This document shows, piece after piece, positions 55,957 through 58,980 of a stretch of 64,000 nt of DNA. The translations under genes were made by a program, and so were the position numbers. Each line of letters starts with the position of its first letter. Within the stretch, counting starts at the first letter, position 1. Below the pieces are notes generated by a model. That model was given only the letters and a program-made list of their open reading frames with translations. It was not told the origin of the DNA and searched no databases. The stretch is from Escherichia coli (GTDB lineage Bacteria; Pseudomonadota; Gammaproteobacteria; Enterobacterales; Enterobacteriaceae): the NCBI RefSeq assembly GCF_024502345.1, contig NZ_JALDNN010000001.1; one strand, 5' to 3'.

Positions 55957-57322
55957 TTAGATAACACCCTTATAAGGAACATGTACTCATCTAAAATGCT
56001 GTTACCGGATTATTATACCTAAAACAATGAATGCTGTGTATTATGAAATGTGATATAAGTCAATTAGTTACATATAAAAACCAACTCACATCCAAAAGGA
56101 TAGTATTTCGAGGTTTGTAGCATCATTAAATGTGAACTTATTTATCGCCCCCTCAAGTTAACTAATAAATAAGTTATAATTTACATATACTTCTGGAATT
56201 TAGAAACCTTATATCTAATAGTTGAGTAAGTTAATAATCAACATGAGTGTGATTCATAAAAAAAATAATTATTATTTTCAGCCCCTCCATTATGGAGGAG
56301 CAATAATAGTATAGTTTTCCTGTATTCCTAACGATCCAGTTAGGCTTAGAGAAATCTAATTATGAAGCACTCCTGAGAGCAACCCTTCCAACTTTATCAA
56401 TATAATCCGCATACCACTGCATCATCTCTCTCCTGCCTTCCAAATACAGCGCATGGTTGTACGTCCCGCGAATCGCATTCTTATCGACATGCGCAAGCTG
56501 GGTTTCAATCCATGCGGTATTGAACCCTTCCTCATGCAAAATCGTACTCATCGTGTGGCGGAAACCATGCCCCGTTACCTTCCCCGTGTACCCAATCCGC
56601 TTAAACACCTGATTAATACTCGCTTCGCTCATTGTTTTGCGGGGATCATTCCTCCCAGGAAACACCAGAGGATATTGCCCAGACATCACTTTGAGCTGCT
56701 GTACGATCTCCAGCGCTTGGGTAGAGAGGGGCACCAGGTGAGGCCGTTTCATCTTCATGCGCTCTGCAGGTATTTCCCACACCGCTTTTTCAAGATCAAA
56801 CTCACTCCAGAAAGCACCTCGAAGCTCACCGGTGCGAACCCCCGTAAGGATCAGCAAACGTGCGGCAAGAACAACCAGCGGGCTGCCTGTATAGCCAGAA
56901 AGAGCTTTAAAGAAATCTGGTAACTCCTCAACGGTAAGGAAGGGATAATGCTTCGATTCATGCCCTGACATCGCGCTGGTTAGATCCGCAGCCGGATTGT
57001 ATTCCGCACGACCGGTAACTATGGCGTAGCGAAAGACTTCGCTGCAGCGCTGGCGAACTTTCTTGGCCTTCTCTGTCGCACCACGGCTTTCCATTCGACG
57101 CAGTACATTCAACAGAACAAGAGGCTTAATTTCATTGACTGGCTGCTGACCGATATAGGGAAAAATATCTTTATTTAAAGCTTCGATAATGTCCGATGCA
57201 TACCCTTCTGACCATCTGCTCACCTTCGTACCGTGCCACTCAAGCGCCACAGACTGGAACGTATTATGATCTTACCCAGCAATAGTGGACACGCGGCTAA
57301 GTGAGTAAACTCTCAGTCAGAG

Positions 57323-57631
57323 GTGACTCACATGACAAAAACAGTATCAACCAGTAAAAAACCCCGTAAACAGCATTCGCCTGAATTTCGCAGTGAAGCC
57401 CTGAAGCTTGCTGAACGCATCGGTGTTACTGCCGCAGCCCGTGAACTCAGCCTGTATGAATCACAGCTCTACAACTGGCGCAGTAAACAGCAAAATCAGC
57501 AGACGTCTTCTGAACGTGAACTGGAGATGTCTACCGAGATTGCACGTCTCAAACGCCAGCTGGCAGAACGGGATGAAGAGCTGGCTATCCTCCAAAAGGC
57601 CGCGACATACTTCGCGAAGCGCCTGAAATGA
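57323..57631 (+). CDS. insE: IS3 OrfA (InsE)
   Basis: [50 protein letters not shown]... Confidence 0.93.
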
Positions 57632-58494
57632 AGTATGTCTTTATTGAAAAACATCAGGCTGAGTTCAGCATCAAAGCAATGTGCCGCGTGCTCCGGGTGG
57701 CCCGCAGCGGCTGGTATACGTGGTGTCAGCGGCGGACAAGGATAAGCACGCGTCAGCAGTTCCGCCAACACTGCGACAGCGTTGTCCTCGCGGCTTTTAC
57801 CCGGTCAAAACAGCGTTACGGTGCCCCACGCCTGACGGATGAACTGCGTGCTCAGGGTTACCCCTTTAACGTAAAAACCGTGGCGGCAAGCCTGCGCCGT
57901 CAGGGACTGAGGGCAAAGGCCTCCCGGAAGTTCAGCCCGGTCAGCTACCGCGCACACGGCCTGCCTGTGTCAGAAAATCTGTTGGAGCAGGATTTTTACG
58001 CCAGTGGCCCGAACCAGAAGTGGGCAGGAGACATCACGTACTTACGTACAGATGAAGGCTGGCTGTATCTGGCAGTGGTCATTGACCTGTGGTCACGTGC
58101 CGTTATTGGCTGGTCAATGTCGCCACGCATGACGGCGCAACTGGCCTGCGATGCCCTGCAGATGGCGCTGTGGCGGCGTAAGAGGCCCCGGAACGTTATC
58201 GTTCACACGGACCGTGGAGGCCAGTACTGTTCAGCAGATTATCAGGCGCAACTGAAGCGGCATAATCTGCGTGGAAGTATGAGCGCAAAAGGTTGCTGCT
58301 ACGATAATGCCTGCGTGGAAAGCTTCTTTCATTCGCTGAAAGTGGAATGTATCCATGGAGAACACTTTATCAGCCGGGAAATAATGCGGGCAACGGTATT
58401 TAATTATATCGAATGTGATTACAATCGGTGGCGGCGGCACAGTTGGTGTGGCGGCCTCAGTCCGGAACAATTTGAAAACCAGAACCTCGCTTAG
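57628..58494 (+). CDS. insF: IS3 OrfB (InsF) DDE transposase
   Basis: [36 protein letters not shown]...; overlaps insE in the arrangement typical of IS3 programmed frameshifting. Confidence 0.93.
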
Positions 58495-58980
58495 GTCTGT
58501 GTCCATATTACGTGGGTAGGATCATTATTGAGCTGCACATCACGAACCAGCTTTTCTTCTTTCTTGGCAAACGATGGATCGATACCCTCGGCCAGCTTTT
58601 TCTTGGCTTCATCGCGTAGTGCCCTCGCTTGAGCAAGGGACACTGCCGGATAAACGCCAAAAGCCATACGCTTCTCTTTTCCATTGAAGCGATATTTCAT
58701 TCGCCAGTATCGAGAACCAGAGGGAACGACTTCAAGATACAAACCAGCACCATCTGCCAGCTTATAGGCTTTCTCTCTGGGTTTAGCTGCATCTACCTGT
58801 CGCGCATTTAGCTTCATTGGGGGCATCTCCCTGGACCGAACACAGAATGCCCCCACTTATGCCCCCAACTGTAACTTGATTCCGGTTGAGTCCAGTTGAT
58901 AACAGGAGATAAAATACGGGCTAGAAACCGCAGTATACGGGCTTTTAGTTGATTTCGGTAGACTTGGGAAGAGTTTGAAA

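Follow-up and report, generated by a model that had tools for sequence, protein, structure and literature searches.

A CP4-57-like island at thrW of Escherichia coli, eroded by insertion sequences that interrupt its integrase and alpA genes, has probably lost self-excision

Results and discussion

Location, limits, and content of the island

The window, which is the whole 64-kb stretch of Escherichia coli DNA that was analysed, contains the tRNA gene thrW (tRNA-Thr(CGT); 58981..59056, minus strand; predicted by ARAGORN), beyond which the list of open reading frames (ORFs) places proA and proB (59171-61626). The order thrW-proA-proB is annotated likewise in the strains PSJ-29, Z226-5, and K-12. 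A region of ~31 kb (28052-58997), situated at the 3' end of thrW, very probably represents a CP4-57-like integrative island with thrW as its integration target. The integrase-proximal att repeat of this island (ATGGTGCCGATAATAGGA; 58980..58997) corresponds, in reverse complement, to the final 17 nt of thrW and 1 further nt, and the distal att repeat (ATGGTGC-GATAATAGGA; 28052..28068), at the far end of the island, was found through an 11-mer match and sequence inspection. With a 25-nt pattern of the thrW 3' end, no second att copy was located; the repeat, which is 17 nt long with a 1-nt gap, was revealed by 11-mer matching and by a comparison with K-12, the homology to which stops exactly within the last 17 nt of thrW. 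To the left of the distal att repeat, the native K-12-type downstream flank of thrW and a CP4-6-like remnant (ykfI, yafW, and others) were retrieved. Strains PSJ-29 and Z226-5 possess the same att repeat and the same island-side sequence, with differing outside flanks.

The island displays a CP4-type backbone, consisting of int, the alpA / YfjJ-like module, a YfjP-like GTPase, DUF932, WYL, Ag43, antirestriction, RadC, DUF987, and YeeU/CbtA, followed by the att repeat. This assignment is based on the annotated islands of PSJ-29 and Z226-5, which are 99.8-99.9% identical; compared with these sister islands, Ag43 and part of the WYL gene have been deleted in the window. The cargo of the island comprises the defence systems Olokun, Dsr1, and WYL + PDC-M09. 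A heat-resistance locus neighbours the island.

Interruption of the integrase gene by IS3

The integrase gene adjoins the tRNA gene, its start being 163 bp away from the thrW 3' end, a short direct repeat of which occurs at the opposite end of the island. It is present in two fragments on the minus strand. The 5' fragment (58525..58817) comprises codons 1-98, including the entire arm-type DNA-binding domain, and runs into an IS3 element, resulting in a 108-aa product (stop codon at 58491-58493). The 3' fragment (56360..57266) comprises codons 98-398, encoding the core-binding and catalytic domains, and lacks a native start, a ribosome-binding site, and a promoter. The intervening IS3 (57267..58524, plus strand) measures 1258 bp, is flanked by a 3-bp target duplication TTA (left copy 57264..57266, right copy 58525-58527), and contains overlapping orfA (57323-57631) and orfB (57628-58494), both open. 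Its ends form imperfect terminal inverted repeats (27 of the first 40 nt pair). This element is 99.6% identical to the annotated IS3 of PSJ-29, and OrfB matches NCBIfam transpos_IS3 with 339 bits, so that length, repeats, overlapping reading frames, duplication size, and transposase all correspond to IS3.

Removal of IS3 together with one TTA copy restored an uninterrupted ORF of 398 aa, which is 100% identical to WP_060659280.1 and to the intact alleles of seven complete E. coli genomes. The restored protein has the three-domain layout of P4-type integrases, namely Arm-DNA-bind_3 (PF13356; residues 3-88, 101 bits), Phage_int_M (PF22022; residues 100-194, 117 bits), and Phage_integrase (PF00589; residues 206-370, 82 bits). 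The insertion point corresponds to codon N98, in the linker that joins the arm-binding domain to the core-binding domain. The catalytic residues R241, H330, R333, H356, and Y366 are present, as judged by motif inspection of the sequence only. Furthermore, the restored integrase is 40% identical to IntA of K-12 over 392 aa (E = 2e-94); its score for NCBIfam PRK09692 (302 bits) is below the 434-bit cutoff, placing it outside that specific subfamily. The assignment to the P4/CP4-57 type is supported by these comparisons, and a catalytic role is predicted. The original prediction that IS3, with TTA as target duplication, splits a P4-type integrase between its arm-binding region and its catalytic domain agrees with the boundaries of the element, the Pfam map, and the ORF restoration, and the type itself with the IntA identity, the shared three-domain layout, and the adjoining thrW 3' end.

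A second intact integrase in the island, which had been named beforehand as evidence that would speak against immobilisation, was sought by means of tblastn, annotation, and colinearity. With tblastn, none was found in the island or in the whole 64-kb window, no further integrase is annotated in the near-identical IS-free islands, and all non-IS sequence of the window is colinear with annotated genomes in which no other recombinase appears. A second copy of the integrase beyond the visible 64 kb is unlikely, because in genomes with a relative of this gene the median number of places matching it is one.

Interruption of alpA by IS5

The alpA gene is likewise divided, in this case on the plus strand. 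Its 5' stub (34410..34431) consists of ATG 34410, codons 2-7, and the first base of codon 8, preceded by GGAG (34399-34402), and is followed by an IS5 isoform of 1195 bp (34432..35626, minus strand; transposase at 34578-35558, minus strand) and a 3' fragment with codons 7/8-68 and the stop codon (35627..35815). IS5 duplicates a 4-bp target with the consensus YTAR, and TTAA occurs on both sides of the element (34428-34431 and 35627-35630), as had been predicted along with its coordinates. The terminal repeats of 16 bp (GGAAGGTGCGAA(T/C)AAG) and the 326-aa ORF, which matches NCBIfam transpos_IS5_4 with 366 bits, are those of IS5 as well, and the element is 97% identical to IS5A of K-12.

Removal of IS5 and one TTAA copy restored an ORF of 68 aa that begins with ATG 34410, which GGAG precedes by 8 nt. 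The restored protein is 100% identical to WP_072197167.1, annotated as AlpA-family in PSJ-29 and Z226-5 (PGAP label of the identical protein: AlpA family transcriptional regulator). Homologues from Hafnia, Klebsiella, Yersinia, Citrobacter, and others are 74-88% identical, all ~68 aa long, and share M1, L7, D10, and D14. ATG 34410 is regarded as the true start of alpA, because PGAP annotates it in two strains and residues 1-14 are conserved across genera; IS5 accordingly lies inside the gene, where it parts codon 7 from codon 8, and ATG 35651 corresponds to the internal Met15. In this respect the original prediction, according to which IS5 lies 25 bp upstream of alpA and merely displaces its promoter, had to be revised: ORF restoration and the N-termini of the homologues position IS5 after codon 7, the ORF itself being split and its first seven codons being detached together with the ribosome-binding site and the promoter.

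The restored protein matches Pfam Phage_AlpA (PF05930) over residues 19-59 with 39.4 bits (cutoff 21). This AlpA/MerR-like helix-turn-helix (HTH) domain is wholly retained in the 3' fragment, for which only TTG 35612, inside IS5, and ATG 35651 remain as in-frame starts. The score for TIGR01764 ('excise') is 17 bits, which is under the cutoff, and the similarity to AlpA of K-12 is weak (13/31 identities, in the C-terminal part). By analogy only, with CP4-57, CP4So, and Rox, the alpA product may act as an excisionase, as an activator of int, or as a regulator of the downstream operon. An AlphaFold model, made to judge residues 1-14 in the fold, was too poor for use (pLDDT 58, pTM 0.39). No alpA paralogue was found in the 64-kb window.

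Other insertions and deletions

Five strain-specific IS insertions occur in the island, located in int, alpA, PDC-M09A (twice), and Dsr1. PDC-M09A contains, near its 5' end, an IS903-group (IS5-family) element of 1057 bp (38065..39121, plus strand) with the 9-bp duplication TCTCAAAAG, and also an IS110-family element of ~1362 bp (39488..40849, minus strand) without duplication. A second, identical copy of the IS903-group element, in inverted orientation (49334..50390, minus strand) and with the 9-bp duplication CCTTATCCC, interrupts Dsr1 (SIR2). In addition, at least three deletions distinguish the island from its sister islands of 99.8-99.9% identity. Hence, the proposal that the hits in int and alpA bear on mobility stands as far as the integrase, being both the sole one and split, is concerned; their framing as a pair does not, since they belong to a series of five IS insertions, with three or more deletions besides. 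The data are explained no less well by general IS-driven erosion than by paired mobility hits.

Occurrence in other genomes and samples

The integrase allele is carried by seven of the 5,426 complete E. coli genomes and is intact in all seven. The IS3/int and IS5/alpA junctions are absent from these 5,426 genomes, and the IS3/int junction had no match among the GTDB representative genomes. Matches H1-H5, which seemed to be other genomes with IS3 in the integrase, turned out to be false joins, IS3 being just nearby and the integrase intact. In public data, the 108-aa integrase-IS3 fusion protein is called on 15 metagenome contigs and the 296-aa GTG-start ORF of the integrase 3' fragment on 13 contigs; the IS3::int allele is linked to the IS903-like insertion in Dsr1 on 13-15 metagenome/SRA contigs, at 100% identity. 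As public contigs span both the IS3/int and the IS903/Dsr1 junctions at 100% identity, the IS3::int allele is no assembly artefact; it is real and inherited, with vertical persistence.

The presence of an identical int allele beside ycgV in four genomes was considered as proof of site-specific mobility and was rejected, since the shared sequence is confined to the int-proximal 17 kb and breaks off at the 49-nt thrW repeat used by a different element type.

Relationship to known elements

The island resembles CP4-57 of K-12 (intA, alpA, and yfjJ at ssrA) in its P4-type integrase adjoining an RNA-gene target (40% identity along the entire protein), in its small AlpA-family HTH gene, after which comes a YfjJ/inovirus-Gp2-like gene (34% identity), and in the shared backbone of GTPase, DUF932, WYL, antirestriction, RadC, and YeeU/CbtA type. 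However, CP4-57 targets ssrA instead of thrW and has alpA at ~1.2 kb from int, as opposed to ~17 kb in the thrW island, the AlpA of which is weakly similar, the cargo of which is defensive, and the int and alpA genes of which are IS-disrupted. Similarly, CP4-6 of K-12 (intF) shares the thrW target, and the CP4-6-like remnant of the window (ykfI to ykfB), past the distal att repeat, is colinear with K-12. CP4-6 is nevertheless distinct in having a 49-54-nt thrW repeat and a distal integrase (IntF), whereas the island has a 17-nt repeat at the extreme 3' end and a P4-type integrase by thrW.

A tie between AlpA-type regulators and excision, as assumed in the original prediction, is documented for CP4-type elements, in which AlpA-family proteins are required for excision or induce it (PMC3105296, PMC5148205, PMC2704930). 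Indeed, overproduction of AlpA excises CP4-57 (PMC3105296), and CP4So of Shewanella oneidensis combines an AlpA-family excisionase with a P4-type integrase, excision being abolished in alpA or intA deletion mutants (PMC5148205). P4-like islands also have AlpA-family directionality factors, among them Rox and Hef (PMC2704930). The CP4So, Rox, Hef, and Vis-type factors are distant in sequence from the AlpA of the island. K-12 cryptic prophages without a working integrase display no detectable excision, as is the case for Qin and CP4-44, which resemble the island in being trapped in the chromosome through integrase loss (PMC3105296). These are old losses, with deletions or pseudogenes, whereas the present case concerns one recent insertion of IS3, the target duplication of which is still intact and which is fully reversible on paper. 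Island integrases that an IS has inactivated, like cryptic prophages that have become grounded, are textbook material.

Loss of excision and decay of the island

Taken together, the data argue strongly for an IS-eroded CP4-57-like island with broken int and alpA genes, for which we infer a loss of self-excision and a neutral decay. Excision by tyrosine recombinases requires the integrase to bridge arm and core sites and, usually, a directionality factor of the AlpA/Xis type. In this lineage, erosion of the island has involved five simple IS transpositions as well as several deletions, and the insertions in int and alpA destroy the site-specific recombination module. With IS3 in the inter-domain linker, the arm-binding domain would be made at most as a 108-aa stub, and the core-binding and catalytic domains are cut off from the start codon and the promoter; with IS5 after codon 7, the HTH part of alpA is separated from its start codon, ribosome-binding site, and promoter. 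Because the split integrase and the split alpA fall short of the needs of tyrosine-recombinase excision, the island would have lost autonomous excision and re-integration and would be inherited vertically. The case for this loss is sound, because the island and the window hold no second integrase, and the alpA lesion adds nothing to it, as the integrase is already dead. Chance is not an issue for the IS calls, because each of the two insertions interrupts, exactly and reversibly, an allele that is seen intact elsewhere.

It is improbable that the island is still mobile, either through an integrase provided in trans or as part of a larger unit moved by homologous recombination, transduction, or conjugative mobilisation. 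In favour of mobility, the two att repeats are undamaged and do not differ from their counterparts in the IS-free islands, the occurrence of the int-proximal 17 kb in another genomic context in other strains indicates that island modules do move, and the visible genome is limited to 64 kb. However, P4-type integrases are generally specific to their own arm and core sites, the integrase allele is rare, genomes with any relative of it have a median of one place that matches, and the 64 kb contains no integrase paralogue. The 108-aa arm-binding stub could even compete for the arm sites.

A rewiring of alpA by IS5 has a similarly low probability. Transcription reading out of the element, in line with the outward IS5 promoter named in the original prediction, would then express either a hybrid starting at TTG 35612 (MFAPSL-TEDK...) or the Met15 product, yielding an altered or constitutive AlpA. 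IS5 is known to activate neighbouring genes, for instance bgl, glpFK, and flhDC. The target duplication rebuilds a Leu codon, so that the TTG hybrid departs from native AlpA in the variable residues 1-7 only. Some residual AlpA activity of the remnant is conceivable, since its Pfam HTH is whole, two in-frame starts are available, the hybrid replaces only residues 1-7, and ORFs on the plus strand of IS5 face alpA. Yet, a consensus promoter scan returned no sigma-70-like site facing alpA from IS5 within the last 1.5 kb, a result that weighs little either way, as total counts were not above shuffled expectation. Furthermore, TTG 35612 has AGGA only 2 nt upstream, ATG 35651 lacks a Shine-Dalgarno sequence, and the conservation of L7, D10, and D14 suggests that the N-terminus, which the Met15 product lacks, matters. 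The 67-aa TTG hybrid was not on record in a protein look-up and has been recorded by no gene caller in public assemblies; a 54-aa product is found on one unrelated contig, 98.7% identical, which begins at 35649. With a broken integrase, AlpA would be unable to drive excision regardless.

Under uniform random insertion with five hits in 25-28 kb, both int (1.2 kb) and alpA (0.2 kb) would be struck with a probability of ~0.6-0.7% (~0.006-0.007), which, as a post hoc calculation for a single lineage, is mildly at odds with purely neutral decay. This value, together with the persistence of the IS3::int allele, which recurs in numerous samples and with two different contexts upstream of it, could point to selection of the hits in int and alpA, a locked island benefiting the host by keeping the defence cargo and the heat-resistance locus or by sparing the costs of AlpA-induced excision. 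Such selection is quite doubtful. Defence genes are destroyed by the remaining three insertions, two of which lie in PDC-M09A and one in Dsr1, and this argues against selection for keeping the cargo, and once int was dead, a second hit in alpA would bring no added stabilisation. Moreover, IS5 is generally reported to prefer AT-rich regulatory DNA, and its insertion site has a GC content of 30-34%. Parallel IS hits in the int or alpA allele were absent among the other genomes. An adaptive 'grounding' of the defence island, a hybrid AlpA with a new, excision-uncoupled role, or a function of the 108-aa stub as site blocker is hinted at only by the ~0.6% joint probability and the allele persistence in many samples, and each of these readings is highly doubtful. 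Finally, although IS3, IS5, and IS903-type elements are multi-copy repeats that frequently break assemblies, it is extremely improbable that the IS copies are misplaced repeats, as all four copies that make target duplications have perfect ones and the same junctions occur in independent public assemblies at 100% identity. The pattern is one of general IS-driven decay, and not demonstrably of targeted immobilisation.

Read as an IS-eroded element that has probably lost its own excision, the thrW island offers a clean and datable example of a tRNA-borne island turning into a fixed part of the chromosome, the IS3 and IS5 hits both being recent and exactly reversible on paper. Their junctions are usable as lineage markers, as illustrated by the 13-15 public metagenome/SRA contigs. 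The loss of self-excision would also explain why vertical inheritance of this defence island, beside the heat-resistance locus, is to be expected in this lineage.

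Location and extent of the island

The right end of the window corresponded to the proB-proA-thrW region of E. coli. ARAGORN reported thrW [tRNA-Thr(CGT); 58981-59056, minus strand] as the sole tRNA gene, beyond which the proA and proB ORFs were found (59171-61626), an order likewise annotated in E. coli PSJ-29, Z226-5, and K-12. A second copy of the 3'-terminal 17 nt of thrW, minus one C, was present at 28052-28068, exactly where colinearity with K-12 (thrW downstream, ykfN/ykfI side) stops. In PSJ-29, this att repeat and the island-side sequence are the same as in the window, whereas the outside flank is different. 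Together, these features delimit a CP4-57-like island of ~31 kb (28052 to 58997) that forms a tandem arrangement with an older CP4-6-like remnant. It is 99.8-99.9% identical to the IS-free islands of PSJ-29 and Z226-5 (the sister islands), whose annotation comprises a CP4-type backbone (GTPase, DUF932, WYL, Ag43, antirestriction, RadC, DUF987, and YeeU/CbtA) as well as alpA and, after it, the gene for a YfjJ-like Gp2 protein (34% identity to YfjJ). PADLOC assigned the cargo (38018-45296, 46053-50994, and 51966-55956) to the anti-phage genes WYL with PDC-M09A/B, Dsr1, and Olokun OloA/OloB; the WYL regulator and PDC-M09A/B are accompanied by an 840-aa partner, Dsr1 is a SIR2 protein, and OloB/OloA adjoin the integrase gene. 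The window further contained a complete heat resistance locus (~8445-23950; sHSP20, ClpK, FtsH-like, YfdX1/2, HdeD-GI, Trx-GI, KefB-GI, PsiE-GI, HtpX, and DegP-like), flanked by IS debris near the mhp genes on one side and a CP4-6-like remnant on the other, and 99.8% identical to that of Z226-5 and ~90 other complete E. coli genomes.

Disruption of the integrase gene

An IS3 element (57267-58524, 1258 bp), identified by sequence reading and a script check, carried imperfect terminal inverted repeats starting with TGATC and plus-strand orfA and orfB, which overlap and are both open, and was flanked by a TTA target duplication (57264-57266 and 58525-58527). The annotated IS3 of PSJ-29 shares 99.6% identity with this element, whose OrfB matched NCBIfam transpos_IS3. 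In silico deletion of IS3 and one TTA restored an uninterrupted minus-strand ORF (58817 to 56360) whose 398-aa product matches the intact integrase WP_060659280.1 at 100% identity and CP4-57 IntA at 40% identity over its full length. Pfam assigned Arm-DNA-bind_3 (residues 3-88), Phage_int_M (100-194), and Phage_integrase (206-370) to the restored protein. The insertion point is codon N98, in the linker joining the arm-binding to the core-binding domain, and the catalytic residues (R241, H330, R333, H356, and Y366) are all encoded on the detached 3' fragment. The ends, the duplication, and the ORF restoration thus bear out the original prediction that IS3 splits a P4-type integrase, the break lying more precisely at the boundary between the arm-binding and central domains.

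Intasome assembly by P4/lambda-type tyrosine integrases requires an arm-binding domain covalently joined to the core-binding and catalytic domains. IS3 alone would be enough to stop the island's own excision and integration. A second intact integrase, named beforehand as a finding that would speak against immobilisation, was absent: in the 64-kb window, the restored integrase and AlpA sequences, used as tblastn queries, matched the split genes alone, and all non-IS portions are colinear with annotated genomes without another recombinase there.

Disruption of alpA

The IS5 element (34432-35626, 1195 bp; 326-aa transposase on the minus strand) was 97% identical to K-12 IS5A. It was flanked by TTAA on both sides, as predicted. 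Its position relative to alpA had to be revised: it had been placed 25 bp upstream of a start codon at 35651. Deletion of IS5 and one TTAA in silico brought ATG 34410, preceded by GGAG 8 nt upstream, in frame with the downstream ORF. The encoded 68-aa protein matches WP_072197167.1 at 100% identity, and both Z226-5 and PSJ-29 have that protein annotated as an AlpA-family regulator. Homologues with 74-88% identity (Hafnia, Klebsiella, Citrobacter, Yersinia, Salmonella, and others) are ~68 aa each, with 99-100% query coverage and M1, L7, D10, D14, and M15 kept. Given the restored ORF and the conserved length and N-terminus, IS5 cuts the alpA coding sequence after codon 7; ATG 34410 is the actual start and ATG 35651 is Met15. 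The part encoding the helix-turn-helix (Pfam Phage_AlpA, residues 19-59) is now without its start codon, ribosome-binding site, and promoter.

Two in-frame starts are left on the remnant, TTG 35612 and ATG 35651, neither preceded by a usable Shine-Dalgarno sequence. The former lies in the IS5 end; since the TTAA duplication rebuilds the Leu7 codon, the resulting hybrid ORF (35612-35815; MFAPSL-TEDK...) swaps just the variable first seven residues of AlpA. This product had no record in public gene calls, and a consensus scan, itself weak evidence, found no promoter-like site facing alpA. A structure model of AlpA reached a pLDDT of 58, too poor for judging whether residues 1-14 belong to the fold.

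AlpA-family proteins act as int activators (CP4-57) or excisionases (CP4So, Rox, and Hef) (PMC2704930, PMC3105296, PMC5148205), in agreement with the control of integrase expression and excision that had been attributed to them. Deletion mutants of CP4So in intA or alpA show no excision (PMC5148205), and excision was not seen for K-12 prophages without a functional integrase (PMC3105296). As regards mobility, IS5 in alpA would be redundant. The island is probably unable to excise or integrate by its own means.

Distribution of the disrupted alleles

Neither the IS3/int nor the IS5/alpA junction occurred in any of 5,426 complete E. coli genomes, and the former was absent among GTDB representative genomes. 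The identical integrase allele was intact in all seven complete genomes carrying it, as was the alpA allele in 3/3. The exact 108-aa Int-IS3 fusion product was gene-called on 15 public metagenome contigs and the 296-aa integrase 3' fragment on 13 public contigs. Contigs of 6.9-7.2 kb were 100% identical to the window from the IS3 interior through the interior of the IS903-type copy in Dsr1; those from several ENA and SRA samples match 50253-57406 over both the IS3/int and IS903/Dsr1 junctions. These repeated identical junctions show that the IS-decayed island is real and inherited in a repeatedly sampled lineage; its recurrence is consistent with an element that has ceased to move. Some ENA/SRA samples with the disrupted integrase have a thrW upstream context unlike that of the window.

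The identical integrase allele was also found with the 3' 46-49 nt of thrW in other contexts than proA, namely beside ycgV/dhaR in four complete genomes (including E. coli ET826 and 2018-05-2CC) and beside phage tail/terminase genes on metagenome contigs. The breakpoint coincides with the 49-nt thrW repeat bounding K-12 CP4-6 (IntF type; 58981-59029 in the window), so that two element types seem to use thrW with crossover points that differ, at 17 nt and 49 nt, respectively. The ET826 element has just the int-proximal 17 kb in common with the island, and its remainder carries Zorya and a type I restriction-modification system.

IS load and decay of the island

Relative to the sister islands, five IS insertions were present, versus two in the original prediction. 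Besides IS5 in alpA (TTAA) and IS3 in int (TTA), these were an IS903-group element of 1057 bp (38065-39121; 9-bp duplication) and an IS110-family element (39488-40849; no duplication), both in PDC-M09A, and a second, identical but inverted IS903-group copy in Dsr1 (49334-50390; 9-bp duplication); Olokun is intact. The IS110-family element encodes a DEDD transposase, named RNA-guided transposase in NCBIfam. Further deletions affected Ag43 with the adjoining WYL gene, an arsenic-resistance remnant (arsC, beside partial arsB), and a neighbouring remnant. Compared with Z226-5, ~0.66 kb and 2.2 kb are missing from the Ag43 autotransporter and WYL genes (29963-30655), and ~4.4 kb (GTPase, DUF932, YfjR, and YpjK) from the CP4-6-like remnant, next to a partial IS5 (24779-24781). 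Conversely, an IS30 transposase gene (4578-5729) is intact here and split by an IS3-family element in Z226-5, so IS activity differs both ways between close relatives.

With five uniform random insertions over 25-28 kb, the probability that int and alpA are both struck is ~0.006-0.007, which is suggestive, albeit post hoc and from one lineage. Selection to keep the island cargo is opposed by the three insertions in defence genes; the overall pattern is one of general IS-driven erosion. The original prediction was largely right, with one substantive error, the position of IS5. Inactivation of island integrases by IS elements is well known, as are cryptic prophages that have become grounded. Immobilisation of this island is a reasonable inference, better cast as part of general IS decay.
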